DNA of 64,000 bases from Dictyostelium discoideum (Eukaryota). Under the pieces are notes generated by a model, which was not told where the DNA came from, searched no databases, and was given only the letters and a program-made list of their open reading frames with translations. Of this stretch, positions 3,703 to 63,841 are shown in pieces (the stretch's first letter is position 1; every line of letters starts with the position of its first letter). Location: contig CM000152.2 of assembly GCA_000004695.1 (NCBI GenBank), forward strand, positions 640,001-704,000, given 5' to 3'. A program made the translations under genes and the position numbers.

Positions 3703-3990
3703 AAAAAAATACAAATATATATTTATTCAATTATTAATAAAAATATCATTACAAGTAAACTATTACTATATTTTTATAAAAATCAATATATATATATAAA
3801 TTAATTTAACGTGTATATAAAAATTTTAATTAGTGTGTGATTGTGTGTGTGCGATATTAAAGGATTATTAATAATAATAATAAAAAAAAATAGGAAATTA
3901 ATAAAAAATAAAAAAATAAAAAAAAAAAAAATAATTAATTAATGTATAAAAAAAAGTTATCTAGATTTTATAAAAATTAAAATAATAATA

Positions 3991-4193
<203 letters not shown>

Positions 4194-4202
4194 TTAAAAA
4201 TA

Positions 4203-7937: not shown

Positions 7938-8964
7938 ATGAATGGAAATAAAAAGATTATAAATCAAATCATTAGGAATGTTGTTCAACAAAACAGTATA
8001 CCCGATGGTACAATGCCAAGTGCAGAGGCATCTTTTGCACTAAATAAATATTTGGATGATCCAAATACTGTAGATTTAGGTATGTTTATACAATTACTAA
8101 TAATAATCATTTATTCTCTATATTATAAATTATTATATATTAATATATTGAATTAATTTTTTCAACTCTAAAATTTTAACACCACACATACATACACACA
8201 TACACACACACACACCACATATAATTAGTTTATATAAATTTAATAGAAAGAATTAGAAATGAAAGATCAAATTATGAACAGGTGTTATCAAGAATATTAA
8301 AATTAATAAAGAATAATATAGCAATACATCCACCTTCATGTCAGATATTACTAGATTTGGATAGTTTTTTCTTATTACTTTCGCCTACTTGTGGTTTATT
8401 GGTTCAAAAAACAATTACATATATAAGAGCACTCATTGCTAACCAAGTTAAACAAAACCCAAGTTATGATCACATAAAGAAAACTTTGGTTTTAAATAAT
8501 AATAATATAAATAATAATAGTTTAAATAATAGTCATGGTATTGAGCATAGGTATTTTTTATATTTATAAAATCTTCAAAAAAAAAAAAAAAAAATATTTT
8601 ACTTATATATTTTTAAAAATTTTATTTTTATTTATTAAAAGCAGTGGTCATAAAAAAACAAATAGTGGAAGTATTGGATTTTTAAGGTATAGAAGTCATT
8701 CAGCGTCAAATTCACAGGTTACCAATAGAGATGATTTTTCATTTCAACGTTCATCATTAGATCTAAGTAATATGTTAGCAACATCAATATCATCAACTAC
8801 ATCATCCAATTCATCCTCATCATCATCATCACCAGTTTCACAAAATGAATCACCTTTAAAAAATACCCTTTTAAGTAATAGTCAAAATAATAATCAAAAT
8901 CATATTAATAATCAAAATCAAAATCAAAATCAAAATCATTTATCTCCGACTTTATCGTCACATC

Positions 8965-9015
<51 letters not shown>

Positions 9016-9183
9016 GTAATAGCAATAGTAATAGTAATAATAATAATAATAATAACAATAACAATAATAATAGTAATATATCTGCGTCCATTAATAGTAA
9101 TAATAGTAATAATGAAACATTAGTATCATCTGTAATATCATCAAAAAATAATAATCATGTATCAAATATAAATAGCAATAGTA

Positions 9184-9234
<51 letters not shown>

Positions 9235-11110
9235 TTGAACAACAACAAAATTCTATATTAACTGGGTCAAATTTAAGTATTGTTGGACATCAGAATAATA
9301 ATGGATTAAGTAATAGTTCAAATCAGCTTGGAGGATCAAATAGTAATATATTAAAAGAAAGTACAAGTTCAGTTTCAAGTAGTGGTTCACCTAACTTTTT
9401 AGTTGATGGCTTTATAAGAGATTTAATGTCTATTAAAGCTTCTTCAAAATCTCAAATTAGTATGTAGTTTAATTTATTAATTCATTTATATTTTAAAATA
9501 TACCTAACATTTTTTTTTCTTTTAATAATAATTTTCTAGAAGCACAAAGTTTATTAACATATTCACCATTTGGTGGACTAAATAGTCAAAATGAGAATAG
9601 TCCAAAAGCAGTTAATAAGGATATATTTAAATGTCCAGATGATTCACAAAATCATTCAAGAATAAATATAGTTAGAGAATCTAAAAAGAAAGCGGAAAAG
9701 AAAGATCAAACCATTTATACATTTCGAAGAAGAAAACCAGCATTATTTCAATATAAATACTATAAGGATCAAGAGCCATTGAAAATCACTGAACAAGAGA
9801 TAACTCAAGTGGTTAGAGTTATCATTAATCCTGCAACACCACAAGATAGATCAATTGCAACCAAAATATTTATAAAGATCATTTTGGATATTTATTGTCG
9901 TGACGGTTTAGTCGTTCAAAGTTCAGAGAAATTGATTTCAAATTACTTTCATCAATTCATTTCAAGTGTAAATAGAGATACTCGTGCTCATACTTTTAAT
10001 ATTTTATTCAATTTATCAATTCATATTAATCTATATTCAGAATTAAGATTAGAAGATCATCAACAACAACAACAACACCACCACCACCACTCAAATAGTC
10101 AACAACATAATAATAATTTATCAATGATACAAGAATTACACGAGTCAATATTTAGAATAGTAATTGAAATGATTCAATATTTAGTTGATAATAAAGAAAA
10201 AGATGAAAGAACTTGGTCAGAATCATTAAGTTGTGTATTGTTTTTTATAACAGAAGAAGGTGTAGTTCTAAAGGATAAATTGTTCCAATTGAATTCTCAA
10301 ATGATTGCAGCTTTCTTATCAAATATTCAAGATCTAATGAGTGATAGCGTTAGAAGAGTATTAATTAGAATGTTGGCTACTTTTCTTTACAAAGACCCAA
10401 TGGGTAATCATATAAACAATCAAAATAATCTATTGTTTTTAAATGAAGAAGAATTTAATGCAGTTGGTGGTATTCAATTCATACTACAGTTATATACTAC
10501 CGTTAGATCAAGCGAAGCAAAGAATAACCTATTTGTAATTATATTTGATTATGTCCTTCATACAGCTTTAAAGACTCAAACCATTGTTGAAGCTCAAATT
10601 GTAAATGAATCACCATTGCTATTAGAACTCTTTAGAAGATCTGATGCCTCTCATTATTTCACTCAAATTTTCAAATGTATACCAGAACATGGTTTTATTT
10701 CAAAGTTTTTTCTCTACACTTCTGAAGAGGCTAAACATGATTCCTCCTATAGTTACGAAGATTTAATCATAAAGTTCACAATGAAACTTGAAGAATTTGC
10801 AACTCGTTATCAAAGTGTTGATTCAAATTTCGAAAGATTAATAATCGATTGTCAAGAGATACCAGAGAAATATCAACAAATTCTCACTGATTCCTTATCA
10901 AATGAAGATGATGAACAATCATTATTCAACGCTGAAAATTGGTTATTCTTACTCTTAAAGAGAGTTTTAATTGATAAAGATGAAAATTATTCACATTTTA
11001 ATTTCTCCATTAATATTTACTTTCAATTGGCTTCAAATTTAAGTACAAGATTAAGAAGAATTTATATTTCAATAACTGAAAGATTATTATTATTATCAAA
11101 ATTTAGAGTA

Positions 11111-11153
<43 letters not shown>

Positions 11154-11817
11154 AAATTAAAAAGTATTAATTAAATATTTTATTATATATCAACTATAGT
11201 TGTCAATAAATGAAACTAAAACAAGTGAAATATTTGATATGTTTAATGAAAGATTTACAAGATTAATTTCTCAAGGTGAAAAATCAGAAAACAATCTTAT
11301 GTATATAGTTGATATTTTATTTGATATGATTTACAAGAGAGCAGGTACAGGTTTATTAAGATCGAAAGAGTCGGTACCAGATACAAATTATTCATTGTTT
11401 TTAACGAATCAATTCGTGGTATCCCTATCACTTTTGAAATTATTTAATATCAATATCATTCAGTATCTATTCAACAATATTCAACACAGTGAAAATACTA
11501 AAGAGCAAAGACTATTCTTGTTACACATTCTAATTCAACGTTGTAAAGATAGTGAAGATTTATTAAAAGTTGGTGGTATTGGATTTTTTAAGAATCTATT
11601 ATCGGATCTTTCAACTCCAATCGCTTACCATTCAAGTTACTTTTTATTGACCCAATTGGAAAATGATTCACCCGAACAATATCGTTCTATCTTGACTCGT
11701 TTACTTCAAAAAGCAAGAGATAACAATAATGAAAATTTACTTTCAAATCCATTTTTCCAAGTTCAAGGTATTGTTGAAATGTCACTTCAACAACCAATTC
11801 AAAATAAAAATTAAATA
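7938..11817 (+). CDS. uncharacterized low-complexity (poly-N/S/Q/H) protein with C-terminal helical (ARM/HEAT-like) region; 5 exons approx join(7938..8079,8247..8550,8641..9459,9540..11111,11200..11817)
   Basis: Five ORF-track segments (7938, 8282, 8535, 9779 and 11200) connect in frame through canonical GTATGT/GTATTT/GTAAGT donors and ...TAG/AAG/TAG acceptors. I verified the phases as 1, 2, 1 and 0. I recognise no named domain. The C-terminal part (GIQFILQLY..., VGGIGFFKNLLSDL...) looks alpha-helical repeat-like. Confidence 0.55.
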
Positions 11818-11889
11818 ATAATTAAAAAATAAATAAATAAAAAAAAAAAAAATAAAAAAATTTAAGCAAACAAATAAAAAAAAAAAAAA

Positions 11890-11953
11890 CCTATGATAAT
11901 AGTAAAAAATATCTATATTAATTAATATAGATATTTTTTACTATTATCATAGG
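11890..11953. other. 64-bp perfect palindrome (inverted repeat with no spacer) in the convergent 3' intergenic region
   Basis: cctatgataatagtaaaaaatatctatattaat|taatatagatattttttactattatcatagg equals its own reverse complement. It sits 73 bp downstream of the plus-strand gene stop at 11817 and at the 3' edge of the minus-strand PKS fragment. Confidence 0.9.
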
Positions 11954-11959
11954 TAATGA

Positions 11960-14900
11960 TAATTTATATAGATTATATGCTCCAACAACTTTTGGATCAT
12001 ATGTTCTATCTAAATGATTCTTATCAATATCTAATATTGGTGAATCAATATTCATAAATTGTTGCCAAATGAATAATTGATGCAACTGGTTCAACATTTT
12101 TATTATTATTGTAGAATGTATTGATTGAATTATTTAAATCATCATAGTTTGAATTTCTATTTTGGTTTATTAGTTTTTTAACTTCCCATTTACAACTTGA
12201 TTTTGAAATTATTATAATATCTTTTAAATGTTTTGGTGCATGATTAATAATCCATTTTGTAATAATTGGTGAAATACTAGTTTGACCAGTAATTAATAAA
12301 GTTGATGGTAATGAATTAATTTCATAATTTGTTTTGATAATGGTCTTATTAATTGTAGAGTTTGAAATAAATTGATCAAAGTTTTGGAAATCAACAACAA
12401 TTTTACCAATGTGTTTTCTATCATTAACATAATAAATTGCTTTTTTTGTTTTTTCGACATAAAATTCTGAAATTGGGATCATTTCTAATTTACTATTGCC
12501 AATATCTCTAAATTATTCTGATAAAATATTAGTAATTCTTGGATTATGTTTACAAACTCTTTCAATATCTATTGTATTATAACCAACATTAAATTTGAAA
12601 TTATTTAAATCAACATTATCATTATCAATTAATTGAGTCATTGATAAACATGAAATTCTTCCAATTTCACTCAATGCATCAAAATTATATTTCAAAAATT
12701 CAACTGATAAAGTATCTAAAATCAAATCAACACCCTTTCCATTAATTTCTTTAATTCTATCACTAAACCTTTTTGATAGTGAACTTGTTTCAGTTGAAAG
12801 TATTTTTGTAATAATATCACCATAATTTTCTAATAGATATTGTTTCTTTTCTTTTGATCCACCAATTGTTACAAAAACATTACCACAATGTTCTTTAGAT
12901 TTTAATAATTTCAATGCAGCCAAACCAACACCGCCACATGCCGAATGGATTAATACTGATTCATCCTTTTCCAATCTACCTAAATGATATAGTGAATAAT
13001 ATGAACTCATATATACCATTGGAATTGATGCTGGTTCAACAAATGATATATTGGTTGGTTTATGAACGAACTAAACGAATGTGGAATTAAACTGGCTACT
13101 TGCTCGTTTAATTTAAATTTGGTAACTTTAGAACCAACTTTTGTTATGATACCAGAACATTCCAAACCTAAAGGTGGATTATAGATATTTCTTTTTGCAA
13201 AAATTTCTTGTGGTAATAATGCTCTCGTTGTTAAATCAGTTCTAAAATAAAATTCAACTTTGTATTTATTTTTTGAACTTGGGAATAAATTTGTTTGTAA
13301 TTTATATCTATTTCCTTCAGTGATAAAAACTGGTAATTTTTTAAATTATGAATTAATATATCTTTTCGTTTGAAAATGTTCGATATATTATCAATGTATC
13401 CACTTCCTGGGAATAAAACTTTTCCTTTAACTCTATGATCATTTAAAAATTTATACATTTTATTTGATGTATCAATTATTGAATGATAAGTTTCGACACC
13501 ATTTATTGATTTTCTACCTTAAATATCAACTGATGGACCTTCTAAAATTTTCTTTTTACTTTTTAATGGATATGACCAATGGATTTCATCATCCCATTGA
13601 TATCTTGGTAGCGATGATGTTGAATCCTTATAGAATTTATCATTTAGTTCTTTTTGATTAAATTGACTTTCAAAATTTAAATTTAAACCAAATCTATTCA
13701 ACGACATGATTGTTGAATTAAAAGAATCAATTTGAGAAGACATCTTCTTATTTAAACTTGTCAAAATTAATGGTTTCAAATTTTTATCTGATGGGATTGA
13801 TTTTTTAATATAATATGCTAATGTTGGAGTTGGTGCTATCTCAATAATAACTGGGTTTTTAAATGATGAATCTTGTTGGTTATCTAAATATTCAAATATT
13901 GATTTAATTGCCTTATTGAATTGTACAGGATTTCTAATATAATTATAAATGTAATCAACATTCATTTGTGATTTTTCAGTTAATTGATCACCATAATGAG
14001 TTGAGAATAATACCTTCATTGGTTTATTTGCATATTTCATATTTATTAAATCTGGGTTATAGAAACCATCTTTAATAATTTCTTGTTTTGATGAATGGAA
14101 TGCAGTGAGTGAACTTAATAATGAAGAGAATATATTATTATTTTGTAAAATAGTTGACAATGATTTTAATTCATTTTCATCACCTGAAACTACGATTGAA
14201 TCTTCAGAATTAAAACATGAAATTTCTAAATTCGGATAACTATTTGAATATTTATTGATTCCTTTTCTCTTAAACCAATTGATAACATTCTACCCATCCT
14301 ACAGTTTTATTTTGAAGCATTGCTCTATAGTAAGAAATGGTGCATGCAGTTTCCAAATCAATAATATTTGAGCAATATGCGGCTGCAACTTCACCAAAGG
14401 AATGACCTAAAATAATTGATGGTTCAATACCCCAACTTTAATATAATTCAACTATTGAAATTTGTAAAAAAAAGAGATATGATTGTGCATTTATTGGTTA
14501 TTAATTTCAATACTATTTGCTGATAATGAATTAACATGTTGGAATACAGAATATTTAAAATGATTTGGTAACATTTTATCAACTTTTATTAATGTGTTTC
14601 TATATAATTCATTATTTTCATATAATTCATTATGCATACCAATATATTGAGGTCCTGCAAAAACAAATATGATTGATGTTTGTTTAACTGGTTTTGAAAT
14701 CTGAAATTGTTGATGGAGATAAAGTTATTGATTTTTCAATTTCATTTAAATCATTCCAATTATTTACCGATACAATATTACGAGCACCAGAAAATATTGT
14801 TTTTGATAAACAATGCTTTTTAACAAAATCTTTAAATTTCATTTTTCCAGAACATGAACCAATATTTTCTTTAATTGTATTTAAATATCTATCTAAAGAA

Positions 14901-15345
14901 TTTATTGAATTTGATGAAAATGGGATTAAATAATTTCTTTCACATTTTCACTTTTTATCTTTTTCAATAAATCTTGGAGGTTCTTCTAAAATTAAATGAA
15001 CATATGATCCAGACATACCAAAATTATTAATTCCAATTGCAACTGGTATTTTTAAATTGTTTGGAAAATCTTCTAATTCTGTTTGAACTTTTAAATTCCA
15101 TTCATCAATTTTAATTTTTGGATTGATTCTTTCAAAATGAATGTTTGGAATGAATTTTTTATATTTTAAACTTAAACAAACTTTAATAAATGAACCAACA
15201 CCACTTGCTGCTTCCATATGGCCAATGTTGGTTTTAACTGAACCAATTCTTAATGGATTTGATTTTGAATGATGATCTTTAAAAACCATTGAAACAGATT
15301 CTACCTCGGTTGGATCACCAGTTGGAGTACCATAATCCTATAATA
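11960..15345 (-). pseudogene. type I polyketide synthase fragment (C-terminal half of KS, then AT, DH, ER, KR-like); disrupted and 5'-truncated
   Basis: Reading the minus strand from high to low coordinates gives five domain segments. The KS segment is DYGTPTGDPTEVES...GSVKTNIGHMEAASG (15345 to 14948). The AT segment contains the active-site GHSFGE (about 14400) and IIEIAPTPTLAYYIKK. The DH segment has LNDHRVKGKVLFPGSGYID, an HxxxGxxxxP motif (about 13400). The ER segment has LIHSACGGVGLAALKLL (12960). The last segment is a degenerate KR-like stretch, LLITGQTSISP (12300). These segments lie in different frames separated by stops. An in-frame TAA at 13516-13518 sits just upstream of the DH motif. 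No KS N-terminal half or ACP is present, and upstream of 15345 the sequence is AT-rich non-coding. Confidence 0.65.
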
Positions 15346-15827
15346 AATTTTAATTTTAATAATATATATTTTATTAATTTTTAAATCATCTAAAAAAAAA
15401 AGAAAAAAAAAAAATTGTTGAAAAAAAAAAAAAAAAAAAGATAAAAATAACCCCACCACCACTTTATTAAAATATGAATATTTTTTTGTGGGATTTGAAA
15501 CCACAAATCGTAAAATTACATATATTTTTTATTTGGTTTGACACATGGTGTCTAAAATGAATTCAAATGAAAATATTATTTTAAATAAGAAAATATCATT
15601 AAATTTTAAAAAAATACTAAAATTTAATTGGTTTTTTTTTCAATATAAATTTGTTTTTTATTTTATTTTATTAAAATTAATTAATATTACAACAATGTGT
15701 ATAATCTATTGTTTTTTCAGACATTTGTCGTTACGTAATTTTTTTTTTTTTTTTATTTATTGTATTTTATTTTATTTTATTTAATTTTATTTTATTTTAT
15801 TTTATTTTATTTATTTTAGAGTTTTTC

Positions 15828-15858
<31 letters not shown>

Positions 15859-15950
15859 TAAAGTTTTAGTATTGAATTGTTACAAGAAATAATTTCTATC
15901 AAATAAAAAGAAATTTTAATTAATAACTTTTTATTTTAAAATTATTATTA

Positions 15951-18900
15951 TTAAGGAGAAGAATCGGCTCGATCTTTTAGAATTAAATTTAATAAAGAAT
16001 ATGAAGATGTTAAAGTTTTTCTATTTTTTCTCTTTTTATAAATAACAACCAAGGCTATAACTATTATTAAAATACCAGCTGGAGTTCCTATTGACAATGA
16101 AAGTATTAATGCTAAATGGTTTGGTCTATTATATTTTCCTCTGTCATCATAAAATGTTGGCTTGATTGGGAAAAATGAAAAATCATATTCATATCTCTGA
16201 TTTTCAATTGATTGTTCAATATATTCATTATTCAATTCTTTATTTATAGCATAATTATTATTATTAGGTATGATTTGATCTAATTGGAAATTAAAATTAA
16301 AAGTAAATGATTTAATTTCATGAGGTTTAATTTGAATAGTTTCAATTGTTTTGTTGTTTTCACCTTTATTCTCACCATCAATAATATTATTTGTTCCATT
16401 ATTTGAGAAAATAATTGATGATGGTTTTTCATTTATAAATGAATATTCTGATTCACCACATTTGACTGGGAATTTTTTATTTATTCTTGTTGAATATTCT
16501 AATTATTATTTTATTTTATTTTTTTTTAAAAAAAAAGTTAGTAAAAATTCTAATAAATAGAAAATAATAATTTTATAATGTACATACTATCAATTAAATT
16601 ATTTTTTGTTAATTTTAAAAAAGATAAACCAGTTTCAATAAAGTTTGATATTTCTAATTCGTTAAATAATGTTGATTTATCGGTATCAGTAGTAGATTGA
16701 GTATTTGAATCAACTTCATGAATATTGAATAATCTTAAACCGACTGTATTGTTTTTTAATGTTAATAATGATTGTAAATGAATATTTGAAGGTAATTGAT
16801 TTGATAATGGTGAATATTTTAATAAATAACCAGTTTGATTATTGTGTTTTTTGACAAACATAATTGGTTGATTTGTAATATGTAAACTTATTCTTTTTTC
16901 ATTTTGTAATTGATTATTAACCAAATCCATATTAAAGTATAATTTAGCATCACTTCTTCCAATATCTTTACTTGGCCAATTTACTCCTTTCCAATCATCA
17001 GTATCCATAGTTCTATGAATCATAATTTCCATTTCGCCATCTGATGGTGATGTTGCGCCAACTGATCTATCTACATAAACTGTATATTGATGATTATTAT
17101 TTTCTGAGGTTTCTTTTAATTTTATATAACCTAAAACTGGGTAATAATTTTGATTGACAGTTCTATCATGATTGTAAATTCTTTTTCTAGATTCTAAACC
17201 ATTATCAGTATAAAATATATCATCATTTTCAAGATCTTTTACTTTATAATTGATTGTTGTTTCTCTATTCATATCACCGTTAATTGAATAACCAGTTTCA
17301 ATGTAATTCTCTGTGATTAATGATTTGCTATTACTATTATCGATTTCATTGTTTTTATAAATTCTTTGAACTACAATCGATGTTACATTGCAACCATCAT
17401 CTACACCATATAACATTGTTAATTGAGATACTAATGGGCCATCGTGGTAGATGAATTTATCAGGGTTCTCTAAGAATCCGTGTTTTTTACCACCTTTAAC
17501 ATTGAAAATGTATGGACCACTCTTTTTAGTTGAATATTGATGGAATGTTTGTTCGATTGTTTTAATTTCATTTGAATTTTTATCAGTTATTTTACTTATT
17601 AAACCATTTGATTCGAATTCTACTTTGAATCTATTATTATTAAAATTAATTTCATTTCCTTTTTTCAATAGTTTTGGTTTTGATAAAATGGTATTTGGTT
17701 TTGAATCTTCATTACTAGAAATACTTAGATAATAAGTATTTAAACCTAATGGTGGTAAATTAATAATTGCAAATACAATATAATTATTTTCAATTGATTG
17801 ACAATTTGAATCATCTTGAATTGGTATTATTTGAATTTGAATTGTTTTATTTGATATAGCTTCAACCAATTGAATTGATTCTAATAATTGATTATCATTT
17901 TTATTAACTTTTATTCTAAATGAAACATGTTGGTTAACTTCCCAACCTAATGTATTGTGGAATACTAATGAATATTGATTATTTATTTCATTTGATAAAT
18001 CTATTACATTTTCAAAATTGAATGGTTCATTTGTACTGTCTGTATTTTCATTATTATTATTATCTTTATTTAATAAATATTCTAAAGAATTTGAAATGAT
18101 ATTATAATTTGAAATTCTTGATTTTTGTAATCTTTGGAAATTATCATTTAAAACAAATGATCTTGAAGTACCTGTAACAATATCATGATGTTGAACCAAT
18201 GCTATTGTATTTCTATTTTCATTTAATTGATTTGATAACGTTTGTAAATTATTAATATCGATTTGATTATTTGAATTTTCGCCAATTGCTAAAGTGTATA
18301 ATATATCTGATGATTTTTGTAAAAGACTTGATTCTCTAATCAATCTTTTTAACAATGGTCTTGTTGTATAATATCCTGTCCAATATTCTAAATCACCAGT
18401 TGAATATGGAAAGAAATCTTTATTATATAATGATAATGTTGATGAAAAACCTGTCTTTAAATTCTCCTCTACAGTTTTACCAAGTTTATTCATAAATTCG
18501 TCCTCTAAAGCAATGAAATATTCATCTATTGTTGCATATTTAATTTCTTTTATATTATACTTTTCTTTATTATCTTGAATAACTTTTAACCATTCTTTTG
18601 AAACTGAAAATTCATTTTTTGCATTTGAATATCTGAAATCATCACCCAATGGAATCATTAGTATGCTTGATTCTCTGGTATTTGATAAATCTTTAATATA
18701 TTTAGTGAATCCTTTAACACGCTCTTCTAATGAAAAATCTTTCTTTGGGTCAATATGCTTTGGATAATCATAATGAACATTTAATGTGGAAACTAACATT
18801 TGTGATTGTTCTCCTAATGATTCTGAACCTTTCCATATGAATTCCATTTCTTTGGCTGATTTCATATAAGATTTAACATCATCTGAAACACGATTAATAA

Positions 18901-19738
18901 TTAATCCTTTTATACCCATACTTGAAAAAATGGTTGGTGTTGATGATGAATATCCAAATGGATCGATTTGCCATGCATATTCTATTGTATAGTTAAGTGT
19001 ATCTTTTAACCATTGATGGCCTTGTGTCATTTGTGTTATAACATCATCAATTGTTGCTGTTGCTTCATCATTTTGTACCCATCCACCACTAATAAATGAT
19101 AGTTGTTTATTATTTATTAAATTTCTAACAATTTCTCTTTGATTTTCATTTCGGTCATTCCACCACCTACTAAAAAATCCACTGTGAGTGTGTAAAATAT
19201 AAAAAAAAGGAATAAAAAAAAAAATGGAAAAATAAAAAAAAGAAAAAGGGTGGTTAGTGGGAATAAATAAAAAAAAAATAATAATAATAATAAAGAAGTT
19301 GGAAAATATAAAAACCATACATTTCTACCCAATTAAATTTCTTTTCTTTATCTAAATTTAATTCATTCACAATACCTGATAAAATATATTGAACAACATG
19401 ATTATAATACCACTGTATTTAAAATAATTGTTAGAAAAGAAAATAAAAAAATGACTAATAATTAAAACTAAAAAAAACTCAATACAAACGTCATAATCTT
19501 GTAACCAACCACTATCACAATGAGAATGGGGTATTAAAAATATAGATAATTTTTCATCTTTTAAATCTCCATTTAATTGGAATATCTTTTTTAAACTTTG
19601 AGAATTATTATTATAATTTACTATTTCAAAATTTTCATTATAAATATTGATAATAAAAGTTGATAACAAAATCCATACTCCAATAACAAATATAATTTTA
19701 ATTAATTTGGTTTTATTCATTTCTTTTATTTTTAACAT
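15951..19738 (-). CDS. GH38 alpha-mannosidase (lysosomal/class II type) with C-terminal transmembrane anchor, copy A; 4 exons approx join(15951..16498,16588..19181,19321..19412,19490..19738)
   Basis: Exon 1 is MLKIKEMNKT (signal) followed by FLIPHSHCDSGWLQDYD, the GH38 HxHxDxGW metal-site motif. Exon 2 is WYYNHVVQYILSGIVNELNLDKEKKFNWVE. The large exon runs GFFSRWWNDRNENQREIV...ISGGWVQNDEA...LVQHHDIVTGTSR.... The last exon is ...NNEYIEQSIENQRYEYDF... and ends in the TM helix LILSLSIGTPAGILIIVIALVVIYKKRKNRK. Donors are GTTTGT, GTATGG and GTATGT. The total of 3483 nt is divisible by 3. Confidence 0.8.
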
Positions 19739-20401: not shown

Positions 20402-22587
20402 TTAAGGAGAATAATCAGTTTGGTCTTCTTGTTGAATTAAATTTGATGAAGAATTTGAAGATGTTAAAGTTTTTCTATTTTTTCTCTTTTTATAAGTAAC
20501 AACCAAGGCTATAACTATTATTAAAATACCAGCTGGAATTCCTATTGACAATGAAAGTATTAATGCTAAATGGTTTGGTCTATTATATTTTCCTCTGTCA
20601 TCATAAAATGTTGGCTTGATTGGGAAAAATGAAAAATCATATTCATATCTCTGATTTTCAATTGATTGTTCAATATATTCATTATTCAATTCTTTATTTA
20701 TAGCATACTTATTATTATTATTATTATTATTAGGTATGATTTGATCTAATTGGAAATTAAAATTAAAAGTAAATGATTTAATTTCATGAGGTTTAATTTG
20801 AATAGTTTCAATTGTTTTGTTGTTTTCACCTTTATTCTCACCATCAATAATATTATTTGTTCCATTATTTGAGAAAATAATTGATGATGGTTTTTCATTT
20901 ATAAATGAATATTCTGATTCACCACATTTGATTGGAAATTTTTTATTTATTCTTGTTGAAAATTCTAATTATTATTTTATTAATTTTTTTTAAAAAAAAA
21001 AAAAAGTTAGTTAAATTCTAAATATATATATATAATATTGTACATACTATCAATTAAATTATTTTTTGTTAATTTTAAAAAAGATAAACCAGTTTCAATA
21101 AAGTTTGATATTTCTAATTCGTTAAATAATGTTGATTTATCGGTATCAGTAGTAGATTGAGTATTTGAATCAACTTCATGAATATTGAATAATCTTAAAC
21201 CGACTGTATTGTTTTTTAATGTTAATAATGATTGTAAATGAATATTTGAAGGTAATTGATTTGATAATGGTGAATATTTTAATAAATAACCAGTTTGATT
21301 ATTGTGTTTTTTGACAAACATAATTGGTTGATTTGTAATATGTAAACTTATTCTTTTTTCATTTTGTAATTGATTATTAACCAAATCCATATTAAAGTAT
21401 AATTTAGCATCACTTCTTCCAATGTCTTTACTTGGCCAATTTACTCCTTTCCAATCATCAGTATCCATAGTTCTATGAATCATAATTTCCATTTCGCCAT
21501 CTGATGGTGATGTTGCGCCAACTGACCTATCTACATAAACTGTATATTGATGATTATTATTTTCTGAGGTTTCTTTTAATTTTATATAACCTAAAACTGG
21601 GTAATAATTTTGATTGACGCTTCTATCATGATTGTAAATTCTTTTTCTAGATTCTAAACCATTATCAGTATAAAATATATCATCATTTTCAAGATCTTTT
21701 ACTTTATAATTGATTGTTGTTTCTCTATTCATATCACCGTTAATTGAATAACCAGTTTCAATGTAATTCTCTGTGATTAATGATTTGCTATTACTATTAT
21801 TGATTTCATTATTATTTTTATAAATTCTTTGAACTACAATCGATGTTACATTACAATAATCATCTACACCATATAACATTGTTAATTGAGATACTAATGG
21901 GCCATCGTGGTAGATGAATTTATCAGGGTTCTCTAAGAATCCGTGTTTTTTACCACCTTTAACATTGAAAATGTATGGACCACTCTTTTTAGTTGAATAT
22001 TGATGGAATGTTTGTTCGATTGTTTTAATTTCATTTGAATTTTTATCAGTTATTTTACTTATTAAACCATTTGATTCGAATTCTACTTTGAATCTATTAT
22101 TATTAAAATTAATTTCATTTCCTTTTTTCAATAATTTTGGTTTTGATAAATAGGTGAAATTTGATTTTGAATCTTCGCTATTAGCAATACTTAAATAATA
22201 AGTATTTAAACCTAATGGTGGTAAATTAATAATTGCAAATACAATATAATTATTTTCAATTGATTGACAATTTGAATCATCTTGAATTGGTATTATTTGA
22301 ATTTGAATTGTTTTATTTGATATAGCTTCAACCAATTGAATTGATTCTAATAATTGATTATCATTTTTATTAACTTTTATTCTAAATGAAACATGTTGGT
22401 TAACTTCCCAACCTAATGTATTGTGGAATACTAATGAATATTGATTATTTGATTCATTTGATAAATCTATTGCATTTTCAAAATTGAATGGTTCACTTTT
22501 ATTTACAGTATTATTATTATTATTACTACTACCACTACCACTACTACTGCTACTACCTGTTGTACTAATACTATTTGTATTTTTAAG

Positions 22588-22642
<55 letters not shown>

Positions 22643-24359
22643 TTATTATTATTATTATTTGTTTTGTTATTACTTTTATTTAATAAATATTCTAAAGAAT
22701 TTGAAATGATATTATAATTTGAAATTCTTGATTTTTGTAATCTTTGGAAATTATCATTTAAAACAAATGATCTTGAAGTACCTGTAACAATATCATGATG
22801 TTGAACCAATGCTATTGTATTTCTATTTTCATTTAATTGATTTGATAACGTTTGTAAATTATTAATATCGATTTGATTATTTGAATTTTCGCCAATTGCT
22901 AAAGTGTATAATATATCTGATGATTTTTGTAAAAGACTTGATTCTCTAATCAATCTTTTTAACAATGGTCTTGTTGTATAATATCCTGTCCAATATTCTA
23001 AATTACCAGTTGAATATGGAAAGAAATCTTTATTATATAATGACAATGCTGATACCTCATCATCACCATCACTAAAAGTTTCAGTGTAAACATTTTGTTT
23101 TCTACTTTTACCAAATTTATTATTTCTCAAGAAACTATCCTCCAAAGCAATGAAATATTCATCTAAAGTTGCATATTTAATTTCTTTGATATTGTAATAT
23201 TCTTTATTATCTTGTAAAGCTTTTACCCACTCTTTTGAAACTGAAAATTCAGTTTTTGCATTTGAATATCTGAAATCATCACCTAATGGAATCATTAGTA
23301 TGTTTGACTCTCTAGTTTTTGATAAATCATTGAGATATTTAGTGAATCCTTTGATACGATCATTTAATGAAAAATCTTTCTTTGGGTCAATATGTTTTGG
23401 ATAATCATAATGGATATTTAATGTGGAAACTAACATTTGTGATTGTTCTCCTAATGATTCTGAACCTTTCCATATGAATTCCATTTCTTTGACTGATTTC
23501 ATATAAGATTTAACATCATTTGAAACACGATTAATAACTAATCCTTTTATACCCATACTTGAAAAAATGGTTGGTGTTGATGATGAATATCCAAATGGAT
23601 CGATTTGCCATGCATACTCTACTGTATAGTTAAGTGTATCTTTTAACCATTGATGGCCTTGTGTCATTTGTGTTATAACATCATCAATTGTTGCTGTTGC
23701 TTCATCATTTTGTACCCATCCACCACTAATAAATGATAATTGTTTATTATTTATTAAATTTCTAACAATTTCTTTTTGAATTTCATTTTGGTCATTCCAC
23801 CACCTACTAAAAAATCCACTGTGTGTGAAATATAAAATAAAAAAATGAAAAAAAAAAAAAAAAAAATGAAAAAGGTGGTTAGTGGGAAAATGAAAAAAAA
23901 AAAAAAAAAAAAAAAGTAAAAATATTTAATGAAACGTTACATTTCTACCCAATTAAATTTCTTTTCTTTATCTAAATTTAATTCATTAACAACACCAGAT
24001 AAAATATATTGAACAATATTATAATAATATCCCTATCAAAAAAAAAAAAAAAAAATATGTTAAAAAATTTTAAAAAAAAGAAATAATTTATTAAAATTTA
24101 TATATTTAATACAAACATCATAATCTTGTAACCAACCACCATCGCAATGAGAATGAGGTATTAAAAATACAGATAATTTTTTGTCATCCCCGTTTTCTTT
24201 GTTATTAATTTGATTTATTGTTTTTAAACTTCGTTTTTCGAATTTATTGATTCCAAAAGTTGATTTATAATCGTAATTATTGTATATTATTAAAAAAGTG
24301 AATACCAAAATCCAAATACCAAAAACCCATATAATTTTAACAAATTTACTACTTTCCAT
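20402..24359 (-). CDS. GH38 alpha-mannosidase with C-terminal transmembrane anchor, copy B (tandem paralog); 4 exons approx join(20402..20964,21048..23818,23941..24032,24117..24359)
   Basis: The exon/intron architecture and splice phases match copy A, and long stretches are near-identical at the nucleotide level. It differs by a poly-N/S insertion (about 22490-22680, NNNNNNNNKNNNN...SSSSSGSGSS) and by a variant block FLRNNKFGKSRKQNVYTETFSDGDDEV. The N-terminal exon has HSHCDGGWLQDYD. The total of 3669 nt is divisible by 3. Confidence 0.8.
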
Positions 24360-45316: not shown

Positions 45317-46503
45317 TTAATTAATTATTTATTTTAATGTAAAAGAGACACCCACACACTTTTTATCACAATTAACACAAACCAAATTAATTAACTGAAA
45401 AAATAATTTTTTGGAAAAAAAAAATAAAAAAACAAGCAAGAAAAGATAGAGGTATTTATTCAATTTAAAAATAGATTTTACTACAATGGTTGTTTTTTAA
45501 GTAGAACATTTTTGTAGGTTATACACATCATTTAAAAAAAAAAAAATAAAATAAAATAAATAAAATAAATTAAAATAAAAATTTAATAATGATAATAAAT
45601 TAACTTTTTAATATTTTATTATTAATTTTTTTTTTTTTTTAATAATGTGTATAAATATTTTTTTTTTTTTTTTTTTTTTTATTATTTCTAATTATTAATT
45701 TAAACGATTTTTAAAAAATATATCATTTTGTTTTCCATTTCACATATTATTTACATATTTTATTTTTAATTTTTTTTTTTTTTTTATTTTTATTATTATT
45801 TTTTTAATATTATATTTTTATTTTATTTTATTTTATTTTTTATTTTATTTTGTTTTTGGTTTTTTTATTATTATTATTTTTTTGTTATCAAATTAATAAT
45901 TTTTTTTTTTTTTTTTTTTATAATTTATTATTATTATTTATTATTAAAAATAAATTTTTTTTTTTTTTTTTCATTATTGTTATTTTTTTTTTTTTTTTTT
46001 ATTCAATTAATATTTTTTTTTTTTTTGGTTATATATTTAATTATTTTTTTTTTAATTTTTTTTTTTTAAATTTTCTTTTTTTTTTTTTTTAAAAAATATA
46101 TTTATTTTTAATTTTTTTTTTTTTTTTTTATACAAAAATCAACATCCATATCTATTTTAATTTTTTTTTTTTTTTTTTTTATTTTTTTTTAATTATTAAA
46201 TTTTTTCATATTTTTTTTTTTCGTATTTTTTTAAAAATTTATTTTATTTTAAATTTATATTTAAATTACGTTCGTTTTTCGCTTCACGAAAAAAAAAAAA
46301 AAATAAAAAATAAAAAAAAAAAAACAAAAAAAAAAAAAAAAAAAAATTTTACTGCAAACTTGATACGTCCAAAAACATATCCAACAATAAAAATATCATC
46401 GTTTATATATACTTAAATAATATAACACAATAATATATAATATTAAAGTTGTAATAACAAAAAAAATAATAATAATAATAATAATAATAAAAATAATAAT
46501 AAT

Positions 46504-46538
<35 letters not shown>

Positions 46539-46927
46539 TATCTTTTTTTTTTTTTTTTTTTTTACAAATAAATTATTAATTAATAATTTCATAATTATTA
46601 AAACCACCACTTCACCCACACACAACCAAACCAAACCCCACTTAAAAAAAAATATCACCATTAAATTATAATTATTATTACTTTTTTTTTTAACAAATTA
46701 GAAAATATTTTTAAAATAAAAATAATTAAAAATAAATAATTTTTTTTTAAAAAAAATAAAATAAAAAGTTAAAAATAAATTATAATAAAAAAAATTTTAT
46801 AATTTAATAATTTACAATTTTATTAATATTAATAATAAAAAAATAAAAATAATAAAAACAAATAAATATATAATAATCCATTTTTTTTTTTAAAAAAAAA
46901 AAAAAGAAAAAAAAAAAAAAAAAAAAA

Positions 46928-47072
46928 ATGAAATCTATGCAATACCATCCACCAACAACCACATTGGTTAGTGAGTTTAATAAAGAAAAATATAATAATA
47001 GTAACCATTATAATGATAATAATGATAATAATAATAATAATAACAATAATAATAATGATAATAATAATAATG

Positions 47073-47105
<33 letters not shown>

Positions 47106-47971
47106 GTATTATTAATAATGAAAGCGATAACGAATCTAATGGCACCAGTAACAACTATAACGATGAAGCCAATGATAACCACCACCACCACCAAGATGAC
47201 GAACACCATGGTAATGGTAACGACAATGATAATGAAAATTACAACAATCAAAACGTGAACCACGAAAAATTGGCAAGCATTAAAAACAAAAACTACAACA
47301 ACAATGAAAGCGACAATGAATCAATCGAAGAAATTAATTCAAATCATAATAATGATAATAACAATAACACAAACAATAATGACAACAGCAGCAATAATAA
47401 TAATAATAATAATAATAGTAATAATAATAATAATAATAATAGTAAAGAAATAAATGAAGATAAAGAAAACTATAACAACTGTGACCAACACCACCACAAT
47501 CATAATAATAATAACAACAACAAATACAATGGTGGTAGTAGTTATAATTACAATAGTAAAAATTGTAAAGAATATATTAACAATCTTGAAAACTTATTAA
47601 AACTATCAAATAAAGAAAATAAAGAACTCTATGAGAAAATCATTAGTTTGGGTAGTATTTTAAATGAAAAGAAAACACTTCTTTCAAAGTATCGTAATGT
47701 TTTAATCGACTATCTTGAAGATGTCCACATTTACGATGAAAACGGTAATGCTAATCCAAACTATGACAATTATAATAACACACAACAAAAATCAATTAAA
47801 GATTTCGATGTTGGTAAAGATTTAGTTAAATCAAATTTAAATTTACAATTTCATAATTATAATAATAAAGATTATAATAAAGAATATAATAATAACAACA
47901 ACGGCAACAATAATAAAGATTATAATAATAATAAGGAATATAACAATATTAATAATAATAATATCAGTAGT

Positions 47972-52442: not shown

Positions 52443-53113
52443 TTATTTTATTTTATCATAACATAATAAAAAATTATTTTCATTTTCTTGATAGAGAACC
52501 CTTGATTTTAAAATTGAATATAAGAAAATAGAAAGTGATAAATGACCATTCTCCAATGCCCTTTCAACGATTGATGTATGAAATCTGGATTTATCATGGT
52601 TATTTTCAGAATTTTCAAAAAGGAATGGATGGTTTTTATAACAATATTTAATCAAATGCAAATTTCCCATTTCAATTGCTCTTTTTAATATTATTGTTGT
52701 TGGAAAACAAGCATGATTATTTCCAGAAATTGAATTTTCGAAAAAAAATGGTACTCCAGAATTTTGAAAGGTTTCAATTATATTTGAAAGGAATGATAAA
52801 TTACTTTCGCATGACCTTTCACCAATTTGATTTAGGACGGTTAAAGGCATATTTAGAAAATCTTTTGGATCATTTAGAAATATACCTTTATTATATTTAA
52901 AAAGTTTAAAGATTGCTGAGCCTAAATACTCTACTTTGAAATCTTCATTCTTATTCAAATAAATCCAATTTATTGCATCAACCCATTGTTTTGATAAATT
53001 CTTTTCCATTAATTGAATAATAGTAGTTTCTGAAAATCTTTCATTACTTCTTTGATCAATTATAGTTTTAAGTTGTTCAAGTGTACTTAAATCGTTATCA
53101 TCATTATTCAAAC

Positions 53114-53209
<96 letters not shown>

Positions 53210-54161
53210 TATTATTATTATCTTCATCTTCAATTCCATCTGAACCATTATAATATTTTTTAAAATAATGATTTAAAACTGATTTTGGAGCACAATTCTT
53301 TATTAAAAAATTGAAATTAATTTTAAATTCTGGTTGACTTTTAAAATAATCTAATATATCACAATTCCAATATTTTAATTCAGGTAATAAATGAAATCTA
53401 TTCGTATCTTTTTCTAATAAATTATAAACCAATTTAATAGAATCTAAATCATTTAAATAACATAATCTTGAAGTTGTTTTTAAAATCTTTATTTGATGAG
53501 AAAAAGGTTTTCCAGTTTTATCTCTCATCAAATGAATATTTTTAATGAGTGAACTAATGTATTGTTTTCTTTTTTCTTTATCAACTTGAAACTGAAATAA
53601 AACATCAATAGGTGTAATATGACTTAAACAATCTGAATTGTAAAATCCATATTTGAATTGAAGATTCGTTAGGTTTTCTGCAGATATTGATGGAAAGTGT
53701 TTTTTCAATAAATTTGGATTTGGAAATGATTTATTGTAACAAATCAAGTATTGCAAACTATCTTCGAACCAACTAATACTCGTTTCACTTGAATCATCTA
53801 ATGCACGTAAACTTATGAATGGTAAAACCATTTTTAATAATTTTTCAATGATTAAATTTGATTTTTGAAGTTGATATACTGGTAGATTATTCATTGATTC
53901 ACCAAATTCCACAATTAATAAATCTTTCATATTTTTTAACTCTGATTCTGATAATAAAAGATCACTGATATTATTAATTTTTAATGAATTTAAAAATAGT
54001 GAAAATGCTTTACTATGTGCTAATAAATCAAGTTGTAATGATTTCATATAATTTTCTAGATTTACTTTAATATTATTTAGACAAATACAACAATTTAAAA
54101 GTTCCATTAATGTTGTAGTTTCATAAAATGAAAATTTAAATGTAATATTACTAATTTGATA

Positions 54162-54260
<99 letters not shown>

Positions 54261-55001
54261 TGATGATTTTAAAAATGGTAAAATATCTTGTTGAAAAAAT
54301 TCTAATTTTTTAATTAAATTTTTTGTTTCATCATTTTTGACAATTGAATTTATTATTTCTTTTTCAGAAAATTTAAAAAGGTGATTAAAATTTTTGAATA
54401 AGAAATTTGCAATTTTAAAAGAACTTGAATTTATTGAAATGAATAATAAATCTTTATGAACCCAAAAACTATGACCAACTTTTTCTTGTTCTTGTTTACC
54501 AATTATTGATAAAACGTTAAAACCTGATAAACAATCATACTTTACTAAGACTGATAATGTATTTTGAAAAGAATTTAAAAATATATCACTATAATTTTTA
54601 AATAGAGCATAATAAAAAGTTTCTTGATCTTGAATGTCATCCTTTTCAAAGCAATTGAAAATTGTTTTTTTAAATTGTGCTCCACTGCAACTAATACTAG
54701 CGTTATTACCACTTTTTATATGTAAATTAATATTATCTTTATCAATAACACCATAATTGAATGTAAGGTATTCTTTTCTATTGACTTTATCTTTTAGTAA
54801 GCCAAGATGATTATTCAATATCATCCATTCACTTGAATAAATCTCTTCATATTTGTATGTATAAAATGGTATTTCATAATTTTGAAAGCTTTTAGGTAAT
54901 AAAGATATAATTTCTTTCCTTAATATATTATTTTTCCAAATTTTCCAAAATAAAAATTCCATATCTCTATCTAGTTTTATCTTTTTATTCATTTTGTCCA
55001 T
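52443..55001 (-). CDS. hypothetical poly-N-rich protein with C-terminal ankyrin-like repeats
   Basis: This is a single 852-aa ORF. Two (AAT)n tracts encode N31 and N33 runs. The C-terminus (RAIEMGNLHLIKYCYKNHP...SIVERALENGHLSLSIFLY) resembles ankyrin repeats. I recognise no other domain. Confidence 0.5.
53115..53220. repeat. (ATT)n (coding poly-N on minus strand)
   Basis: This is a direct read. The antisense poly-Y ORF 53081..53263 + is an artefact. Confidence 0.9.
54163..54259. repeat. (ATT)n (coding poly-N on minus strand)
   Basis: This is a direct read. Confidence 0.9.
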
Positions 55002-60246: not shown

Positions 60247-60283
60247 TTTATTGTGGTGTATATTTTATTATTATTTTATTTAA

Positions 60284-60287
<4 letters not shown>

Positions 60288-60354
<67 letters not shown>
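60288..60354. repeat. (ATT)~22 microsatellite immediately upstream of the WD40 gene start
   Basis: This is a direct read. It is followed by (GATTTG)3. Confidence 0.9.
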
Positions 60355-60355
<1 letters not shown>

Positions 60356-60977
60356 TTATTATTATTATGGTTTGATTTGATTTGATTTGATTTTCTATAA
60401 ATATTAATTTTACAACAAAAACTATTTTTTTATTTTTTTATTTTTTTATTTTTTTTTTTTATTATTACAAGATATTAAACCTTAATCGGCTAATGGATAT
60501 ATGTTTATTATTATTATTTTTTATTTATTTTTTTTGTTGGGAGTGCGTTTATTATTATTTTTATTATTTGCTATTAAAACAATTTATTGTTATTTTTATT
60601 AATTTTCAGTTATCTTTTCCCCCAACACTTGTGATCACACTGTTAGTTTTTTTTTTTTTTATTTTTTGATATATAAAAAAAAAAAAAAATTAAAAATAAA
60701 AAAAAATAAAAATTTTGAAAAAAAAATCTTTTTTTTTTTTTTTTTTTATTTTTTTTTATTTTTTTTTTTTTTTGATTTTAATTTTCTTTTTTTTTTTTTT
60801 TTTTTGATTATTTTATGATAACTCTAAAATGGGTTTGAAAAATGTTAATAAAATAAATAAAAATAAAATATGTCATATTTTTTTCATTTGATTAATTGAA
60901 GAAAAAAAAAGTGAAAAAAAAAAATAAAAAAATAAATAAAAAAATAAATAAAATTATAAAAGATGTAGAAAAATTTT

Positions 60978-61605: not shown

Positions 61606-62308
61606 TTATTGACAAAGATATTTTTGCAATAAATCAACATTTTCTTTTGGTAAATATTGATTAAGATTAATATTACCATCACAAAACATTTGTCTGGAAT
61701 AATAACTTCCAACGATTACTAATGGTACCATTACTAAATATGTTAAGTTTCTTAATAAATGACTTGGTTTAAGCGTTTGAATTACGCTCTGAAAAGTGAG
61801 AGAGAAGATAAAAAAAAAAAAAAAAAAAATTAATATTTTTGATTTATTGAAACAACAATACATATAATAATACTTACATCACAAGTTATATTACAAAGAT
61901 TAACATCATCAACTTCAAAAGTACTCTTTTGTGGTTTCTTTAATTGTTTTCCTTGTTGTTGTAAAAGTTGTTGTTGTTGTTGATGTTGTTGAATTTGTAA
62001 TTGTCTTTTTAATAATAAACTATTATTTTCTTCTCTACAGAATAATGCTAATTCATAAACTGATTGTTTGGTTAAGGTTGGTTGATGTTGATGTTGATGT
62101 TGTTTATTACCATCCTTTTTCTCTGATGATTTCCATTGTAATAAAACATAGAGTAATAAATTATTGATTTGAGCGATAAATTCAACATATCTACTCTTCA
62201 AATAATGAAAACAATTATTATCTATATTTAAACATTCAATTACCTTATTTAAAAACTGCATATAAATATAAAAAATTATTAGTATTTATTATATTATTTT
62301 ACTATTAA

Positions 62309-62377
<69 letters not shown>

Positions 62378-63841
62378 TTACTCTTTCTCTTAAAGCTTCA
62401 TCTGGCATAGCACTATAATTTAATAATACATAAAAGTATGATGATGGTATTTTATTATTTGAAAATAATTTTTTCAAATCAAATAAGATATCAGAATATT
62501 TCATACCAATTGGTTGAACAGTTTGTAAAATCAATGCATTAAGAAATTCATCCAATGAATTTGCTAAAACAGTATCTTCAATTTCAATACCATTCTTTTG
62601 AACTCTCCTAATAAATAAAAAACATATATATAAAGAAATAAATAAATTAGCTAATTAATTAAATTGAAATATAACAATAAAAATTATTATTTAAAAACTT
62701 ACTTTAATTCTAATAATTGAATAGTAAACTTTTCAAATAATTCTAAATTTGAATGATTTGAAACTTTTGCTTTATATAAGATTGGGAAAACGATTTGTAA
62801 CCAAATTGAAGCAGTTATAGAATGTAAATTATTTTGAATTGGTTGTGAAAAGAACCAAAGATATAGAGAGACAACATTTGGTTTCAAAGTTTGTAAACTT
62901 AGTGATTTGAAATATTGTAAATTCATTAATAAAGAGTCTGGGAAATATCTAAAAATCAATTGAAGTAGTATCTCCAAACCTACACCACTACTTGAAATTG
63001 CATCTTTATCCTTTCTTAAAATTGATATAATATTATTAGCTAAAAATACAACTGTTGGTAATATATTTGACATTGGTCTACTTGAAAAGAATTTAGTCGT
63101 TTCTTTTCTAAATTTATCATCAAATTTTGATAAATAATCTATAATATTATATTATTATTATTATTATTATTATTAAATAAATTTTTTATTAATAATTGAC
63201 TATTTTTTTTTTAAAAAAAAAAAAAAAATTATAATTACCAATTCTTTGATAAAATGGAGATTGATCAGATGGAATTGAACCAAAATGTTCCTCTAAACAT
63301 TCTGCAACACATTTAATTTGAACATCAACTACCTTTGGAAATTTCTTTTCGATATTTTTTAATAAATCATAATATTTTTCAAAATTAAACTAATAATATA
63401 ATAATAAATATGTTAGTAAATGATGATTACCTATTATTATGATTATTATTATGATTATGATTATTAGATAATTACAGATTGAATTGCATTTGATAAAGAT
63501 TGTTTAGAATCTGATGGTGATTGTGGTTGTGGTTGTTGTTGAATTTGTTTCTTTTTCTTTTTTAATTTATCATTTGAATTTGATAATCTATCACTACCAG
63601 GATAATGGAAACCATTGTTTGGATTTTCAGAGGTTTGTTTTGCACCATTTCTTTTTTGATGTTCTTGAGTATGAGTGATATCATCTTCATCTTCGTCTAA
63701 TATATCCCATGGATTATATCCTGCTGGTCTATTTTTAATATTGAATGCTTTTGATGAGTCTGAAAATAATTCTGCAATTTTCTTTTGTTTTTCCTATAAT
63801 AAAAAATTAATGTTAAAAATAAATAAATAAATAAAATAAAT

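Follow-up and report, generated by a model that had tools for sequence, protein, structure and literature searches.

A perfect, spacer-less palindrome of 66 bp lies in the D. discoideum DNA analysed here (a stretch of 64 kb, called the window) between a conserved gene and the remnant of a convergently oriented PKS gene, and its outer edge on the PKS side coincides to the base with the point at which the PKS breaks off. Comparison with two sibling lineages that have kept the PKS intact indicates that one arm is the old 3' flank of the neighbour gene and the other an inverted copy of it, added where about 0.7 kb were deleted. We propose that the palindrome is probably a repair scar of the D. discoideum lineage, left by snap-back synthesis-dependent MMEJ (SD-MMEJ) of the Pol theta type.

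A perfect palindrome at the end of a PKS remnant

The initial annotation had reported a perfect spacer-less palindrome at 11890-11953, and reverse-complement comparison found this to be exact, with a symmetry that reaches one base further on each side (11889-11954, 33-nt arms). The centre, TTAA/TTAA, falls between 11921 and 11922 within the sequence TTAATTAA; the mark by which the arms had been divided was one base off this centre, a trivial correction. The description of the composition as mixed, with no simple A/T run, holds: the 64 bp of 11890-11953 contain 54 A/T and 10 G/C (84% A+T), and the G+C content of the window is about 22%. The runner-up spacer-less palindromes in the window have 13-nt arms and are made of A/T runs. 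The longest arm produced by chance measured 18 nt in 200 first-order Markov simulations and 16 nt in 200 block shuffles, against the 33 nt observed, and chance is no explanation for arms of this length. Folded as single-stranded DNA, the palindrome gives one 31-bp stem closed by a 4-nt loop (-27.6 kcal/mol, z = -9.2). It is single-copy across all data examined: no further copy of the arm was detected in the 64-kb window at up to three mismatches, the fetched loci carry the arm at the orthologous site only, and the metagenome contig collection returned 0 matches. Copies at many loci, which would have marked it as a generic repeat family, were thus seen neither in the 64-kb window nor among the metagenome contigs. 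The sequences bordering the palindrome, AAAAAAAA and TAATGATA, show no duplication: one flank is an A run and the other reads TAATGA. Elsewhere in the window, many mutually similar low-complexity tracts (approximately 3900-4200, 8960-9240, 46400-47120, 53090-53220, 54140-54270, 60260-60470 and 62260-62380) cross-match each other and flanking loci in BLAST comparisons; we interpret them as codon repeats of the Asn/Gln type together with simple sequence rich in A/T, such as is typical of Dictyostelium DNA, coding and intergenic alike.

The palindrome had been placed 73 bp after the stop of the plus-strand gene. The placement is correct and the distance is not, since 74 bases were counted between the stop codon (TAA, 11812-11814) and the palindrome; this interval contains six AATAAA motifs. 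On the minus strand the PKS remnant had been said to end at the palindrome, and indeed its last open frame enters the right arm and terminates within it. KR homology in this frame continues up to LSL, the final 11 codons and the stop codon (TAA, 11918-11920) being supplied by the right arm, and the Pfam KR match, which covers profile positions 2-123 of 180, ends at LS. The features of the locus are collected in Table 1.

Table 1. Features of the palindrome locus, in window coordinates (a slash marks a boundary within a sequence)
Feature	Position	Strand	Basis
Last exon of the convergent conserved gene (about 1150 aa)	11200..11814	+	Orthologues across dictyostelids
A-rich 3' flank containing AATAAA motifs; its last 14 nt, directly before the palindrome, are all A	11815..11888	+	
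Palindrome	11889..11954	.	Self-complementarity, folding, simulations; identical in L001
Ancestral (template) arm: native 3' flank of the plus-strand gene, through TAATTAA (11919-11925)	11889..11925	+	Score 71 to L008 and L009
TTAA, self-complementary, putative turn-around and primer site, common to the ancestral sequence and the right arm	11922..11925	+	
New inverted copy, 27 nt, exact reverse complement of 11891-11917	11926..11952	+	No sibling counterpart
Right-arm sequence, CCTATGATAATAGT...			
GT (AC on the minus strand), 2-nt junction microhomology	11953..11954	.	PKS ...TCATTAC and arm copy ACCTATG both have AC
PKS remnant: KS C-terminal part, AT, ER, KR N-terminal two thirds; frameshifts	11953..15332	-	Pfam; 88% identity to P0112; block map against L008/L009
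KS C-terminal part	14948-15289	-	Pfam
AT	13519-14160	-	Pfam
ER	12513-13019	-	Pfam
KR start	12045-12482	-	Pfam
Last open frame of the remnant, ...DRTYDPKVVGAYNLYKLSL/PMIIVKNIYIN, then stop	11918..12097	-	Translation

When compared to the intact sibling gene (L008 10001-17008), the remnant exhibits three large deletions plus several frameshifts. The 5' deletion removed about 1.1 kb (L008 10001-11136) and the internal one about 1.76 kb (L008 13258-15013), the latter leaving a junction at 13225-13227 that reads AACAAC/G/AGAGC with approximately one filler base. The 0.7-kb 3' deletion at the palindrome is the third, and an inverted templated copy is present at this 3' junction only. In the independent D. 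discoideum assembly GCA_054883475.1, a 1649-aa gene model (L001 3739-9940, approximately window 13500-19700) fuses a mannosidase gene with the KS/AT remnants, and the ER and KR fragments are annotated separately as the hypothetical proteins ACTFIT_010038 and ACTFIT_010037. The fused model and both of these entries are pseudogene pieces and not real genes.

The palindrome is identical in that assembly (L001 11505-11570), whose locus matches the window at 99.87% identity over 21 kb, not 100%. Logan short-read contigs from other samples (SRR268692xx; L003-L006 and L010) carry the same PKS remnant, with about 0.5% substitutions relative to the window in L003, the only contig so compared. All four contigs inspected terminate at ...AATATCTATAT, 5 nt short of the palindrome centre. 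When a k=31 de Bruijn graph is built from the window sequence, two different flanks converge on shared arm k-mers at this very base and the unitig is predicted to break there; that the contigs end at the predicted base implies the presence of both arms in those samples, bounded identically on the outside. A contig from SRR26869256 crosses the centre and ends 15 nt past it, as we would expect of a k=31 unitig that closes on its own reverse complement with the other flank unsampled. The window, GCA_054883475.1 and several SRR268692xx read sets agree, and an assembly or cloning artefact is not supported on present evidence. Since the same junction and arm boundary occur in read sets diverged by about 0.5%, the scar is older than the separation of the D. 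discoideum samples concerned. Against the contig index, the plus-strand gene's last exon gave no match in either of two versions (204 aa and 191 aa). As k=31 short-read assemblies break exactly at the palindrome, such stereotyped contig ends could serve to detect perfect palindromes in unitig collections.

Sibling lineages and the polarity of the two arms

An intact PKS was found in two 'Dictyostelium cf. discoideum' assemblies, as P0112 (2275 aa) and P0156 (2278 aa), at the loci L008 and L009. Both are complete, with KS, AT, DH, ER, KR and ACP. The KR portion of the remnant, used as query in an exhaustive HMMER search, recovered P0112, which is 88% identical to it in an alignment that ends two residues into the palindrome. 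A word-indexed protein search with the ER-KR region yielded no full-length dictyostelid PKS, only D. discoideum fragment models and distant quinone-reductase-like matches, and a word-indexed search for further intact PKS ends with the C-terminal part of P0112, which is deleted in D. discoideum, returned nothing. Gene order is shared between the window, L008 and L009: two GH38 mannosidase genes, the PKS, the convergent gene of about 1100-1200 aa and then a gene called as peptidase S28 (the call being made in L008). An intact gene cannot be rebuilt from the remnant, and the D. discoideum state is therefore derived. In D. purpureum a FolB/HPPK gene, not a PKS, follows the orthologue of the plus-strand gene, and this species is uninformative on the ancestral junction.

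The mannosidase genes form a tandem duplication in the window (16550-19738 and 21007-24180, about 96% identity over 2.2 kb), and the siblings also carry two copies. After each copy in the window lies a small ORF of about 94 aa (15951-16235 and 20402-20689) with a transmembrane-like hydrophobic stretch, MNNEYIEQSIENQRYEYDFSFF....

A comparison of the orthologous region for rearrangement, as had been advised, did reveal one: the siblings have the intact PKS end, and D. discoideum has lost about 0.7 kb of it at the palindrome. The connection that had been drawn between the palindrome and the truncated PKS also proved right, to the base. BLAST homology on the PKS side extends as far as 11953 in both comparisons (L008 16349, L009 16367), and this position, the right arm's outer edge, is the exact 3' truncation breakpoint relative to the intact orthologue. 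The siblings read ...AAATTATCATTAC/AATTAAAATGG at this boundary (LSL/QLKW...) and the window ...AAATTATCATTAC/CTATGATAATAG; in place of the 27-nt copy, the intact PKS has CAATTAAAATGG... (QLKWNL...). At the protein level homology ends with ...NLYKLSL, after which the intact gene goes on QLKWNLKQFLLFSSV... and the window has the eleven arm-encoded residues. Between window 11953 and approximately 11925, some 692-698 bp are missing relative to L008 and L009. Lost along with the stop codon and the 3' flank of the PKS were the C-terminal third of KR, with its catalytic residues and FSSVAS...YTSAN, and the ACP, with GIDSL.

From the opposite direction, homology on the side of the plus-strand gene spans the A-rich tract and the entire left arm, the BLAST alignments ending at 11922 (L009) and 11939 (L008). 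Pairwise local alignments were used here, because the spacer of L009 is of low complexity and was misaligned by MAFFT. In these, window 11925-11870 aligns to both sibling spacers with a score of 71, whereas the right arm reaches only 21-23, over a short A-rich stretch. The L009 alignment reads TTAATTA(TTG)ATATAGATATTTT(TTTTA)TTATTATTATTATAGTTTTTT, and that of L008 is similar, minus about 20 nt. Since the left arm aligns to the siblings and the right arm does not, the left arm is the ancestral 3' flank and 11926-11952 is new. The left arm differs from both siblings at three positions (ACTATTATCATAGG versus ATTATTATTATAGT; on the reverse complement, C at 11951, C at 11945 and G at 11941), and all three are mirrored in the right arm, which was therefore copied from the left arm of D. 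discoideum itself. Which of the arms gave rise to the other can thus be read from the aligned sequences, as can the deletion and both microhomologies. The opposite assignment, with the left arm as the copy and the right arm as native PKS, had been suggested by the KR frame that runs into the right arm; it was rejected, as homology to P0112 reaches no further than the right arm's outer edge, and the polarity is the reverse.

The TTAATTA at the centre of the palindrome also occurs in L009 (17060-17066), and L008 has TTATTT at that place; a primer repeat that predates the event is accordingly read as the ancestral state from one of the two outgroups (L009). Immediately 3' of the stop codon of the PKS, both siblings moreover have an imperfect inverted repeat (L008 17030-17075; L009 17030-17090), AAAAATGATATCTTTAT...ATATAGATATTTTTT, whose second half is also given as ATATAGATATTTTTTT (AAAAATGATATCTTTAT...ATATAGATATTTTTTT). 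Its arms are separated by about 24 nt in L009 and by 2-4 nt in L008, which has a deletion of its own of about 20 nt. The imperfect repeat folds with -9.6 kcal/mol in L008 and -6.5 kcal/mol in L009, and the perfect hairpin is absent in both. Given these imperfect repeats and the separate deletion in L008, the spacer of more than one lineage appears to be liable to hairpin-associated rearrangement.

A probable repair scar and the alternatives to it

The ancestral locus would have held an intact PKS of about 2275 aa, convergent with the conserved gene. A double-strand break or collapsed fork in or just past the 3' part of the PKS would have been followed by resection on the side of the neighbour gene, exposing a plus-strand 3' tail ending in ...TATATTAATTAA-3'. 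This self-complementary end could fold back on itself, with AA (11924-11925) possibly pairing with TT (11918-11919) around an AATT loop, and a polymerase would then extend it by about 29 nt on its own strand, from 11917 back to 11889, writing TATAGATATTTTTTACTATTATCATAGGT (TATAG...CATAGGT). After unwinding of the hairpin, the new ...GGT-3' end would anneal via GT/AC to the PKS-side minus strand, ...TCATTAC-3', inside KR, and flap trimming, gap filling and ligation would close the joint. The net outcome would be a loss of about 0.7 kb and a gain of a 27-nt inverted insertion that forms, together with its template, the 66-bp perfect palindrome. We infer the break itself, the order of these events, the polymerase and the origin of deletion and copy in a single event. 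The locus displays a deletion, a reverse-complement insert abutting its template, a prior primer repeat (in L009) and a junction microhomology, a combination that defines snap-back SD-MMEJ (PMC5728401) and also characterises the reverse-complement class of Pol theta templated insertions (PMC5068794).

Snap-back synthesis-dependent MMEJ is performed by DNA polymerase theta in animals and plants. It relies on short inverted primer repeats, non-processive synthesis and annealing of the nascent DNA to a microhomology at the other end, and longer inverted repeats result (PMC5728401). Snap-back replication leads to reverse-complement flank insertions in Pol theta-dependent deletions (PMC5068794, S7 Fig), and D. 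discoideum encodes PolQ (DDB_G0277749) and DNA ligase III (PMC8529158). Several considerations count against the scar model. Templated inserts average about 10 bp and the reported error rate of Pol theta is about 1 in 30 nt (PMC5068794), and an error-free copy of about 29 nt by this enzyme is possible, not typical. Furthermore, a turn-around that leaves no spacer would have to be primed on a stem of 2 bp closed by a 4-nt loop, or else by trans pairing to a sister end. Judging by the imperfect repeat of the siblings, the inner part of the right arm could also be in part corrected ancestral sequence and not newly made. Sequence alone does not separate break repair from a template switch, nor one event from two.

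A template switch during replication, of the kind that follows fork stalling (intra- or inter-strand, as in quasi-palindrome correction) and involves no two-ended break, would yield a product identical to the one observed. The growing strand would leave the PKS within KR, re-prime through AC/GT on the opposite-sense flank, copy about 30 nt and return at the TTAATTAA centre, with the 2-nt and 4-nt microhomologies at the switch points, and AAAAATGATATCTTTAT...ATATAGATATTTTTT in the siblings is a classical substrate for such a reaction, although this imperfect repeat would favour fold-back or template switch alike. In short template switches the replaced and the replacing stretches are usually of similar length, whereas this one would span about 0.7 kb, and nothing in the sequence favours it over end joining; we regard it as a rather unlikely origin.

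Alternatively, the imperfect repeat could have been converted to a perfect palindrome in a first event, and a simple microhomology-mediated deletion at the resulting fragile site could later have taken away the outer part of the right arm along with the 3' end of the PKS. Perfect AT-rich palindromes are break-prone, and the ancestral quasi-palindrome is present in both siblings. Any deletion into one arm ends the symmetry at its junction, so the arm boundary would meet the junction automatically, and their coincidence alone is therefore no proof of a single event. Such a history, however, needs two rare events instead of one, and its first step would still be a templated inverted copying of the left arm. 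No sampled lineage combines the palindrome with an intact PKS end, and all D. discoideum samples examined share the junction. We consider this sequence of events improbable. The initial annotation had supposed a link to a breakpoint, which holds, and had proposed a breakpoint hotspot; in the simplest reading the palindrome is the product of repair and not the cause of the break, a causal role being kept in the two-event history only.

Its shape, a perfect hairpin-forming repeat beside a broken gene, had also brought up the footprint of a foldback-type element, but transposase hairpin footprints measure a few nucleotides, not 33. Dictyostelium does have hairpin-forming thug-S repeats (PMC6161686), yet an insertion of a foldback or MITE-like element of that sort, or the hairpin footprint of an excised DNA transposon, is very hard to credit at this locus: half of the palindrome is orthologous single-copy intergenic flank in lineages where neither the deletion nor the palindrome arose, so that the 'empty' site already holds one arm, there is no target-site duplication, and no second copy occurs in the 64-kb window (up to three mismatches), in the fetched loci beyond the orthologous site or in the metagenome collection.

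A hairpin maintained by selection, either as a 3'-end or termination element of the convergent transcripts or as a small-RNA precursor, is equally far-fetched, even though the palindrome sits between convergent genes, would form a 31-bp perfect stem if transcribed and gives a weak Rfam match (11888-11955) to the mir-754 precursor (28.3 bits, E = 0.0036). This score is far under the gathering score of 84, and we regard the match as one that any perfect hairpin might elicit; neither arm sequence occurs in one supplementary file of the D. discoideum miRNA survey PMC6161686. The bidirectional terminator that had been envisaged is a bacterial concept and the host is a eukaryote; intrinsic terminators have a G+C-rich stem and then a U run, and the stem here is 84% A+T; six AATAAA poly(A) signals precede it, one of the flanking 'genes' is a dead pseudogene, and the siblings lack the perfect hairpin. 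Recent copying explains the perfect symmetry, and selection is not required. There is a slim chance that the hairpin, if transcribed by read-through, could be a substrate of Dicer (DrnB), which would amount to the datable birth of a small-RNA locus de novo, its ancestral state without a hairpin being preserved in the siblings, or that it acts as a cruciform-forming fragile site.

Comparison with known systems

If the palindrome is a snap-back repair scar, as we favour, it illustrates that a long perfect palindrome can arise without a mobile element, as a by-product of the joining of broken ends. It would be a clean, polarised, natural snap-back templated insertion in which ancestor, template, primer site and junction microhomology are all readable, and it is at the same time an ordinary example of a known mutational mechanism. 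The accompanying deletion is one of three large ones that inactivate the PKS of D. discoideum, a gene intact in the closest relatives, and may matter for comparisons of secondary metabolism across the species complex.

The locus resembles the snap-back SD-MMEJ and Pol theta scars obtained after I-SceI cleavage in Drosophila (PMC5728401) and the delins of C. elegans (PMC5068794, PMC4032859) in that a deletion is combined with an exact reverse-complement insert of the breakpoint flank, a very short inverted primer repeat lies at the turn-around, 1-2 nt of microhomology are used at the other end and an inverted repeat is lengthened. It departs from the C. elegans scars by the length of the copy, about 29 nt against an average insert of about 10 bp, and from SD-MMEJ and Pol theta scars generally by being spacer-less, because the break end would itself have been palindromic (TTAATTAA). 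In addition, the allele is natural and fixed, and its carrier is an amoebozoan, with a putative role for PolQ; in the literature we met no description of a snap-back insertion signature for this amoebozoan.

Like the thug-S repeats, the palindrome is a non-coding, AT-rich inverted repeat able to form a hairpin. Those repeats are multicopy and some host miRNA loci (PMC6161686), whereas the palindrome is single-copy in the data examined, consists for one half of ancestral flank and has neither element termini nor a target-site duplication. Quasi-palindrome correction and short template switches are similar in that an imperfect inverted repeat of the ancestor is replaced by a perfect one, with one arm templating the other; here, in contrast, the arms are 14 nt longer than the ancestral repeat, the spacer is gone and about 0.7 kb are deleted at the same place. 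Finally, fold-back inverted duplications and hairpin-capped ends likewise begin when a 3' tail folds back within its strand at a short inverted repeat and is then extended along that strand, but the product here is a 66-bp interstitial palindrome and not a duplication on the scale of a chromosome.
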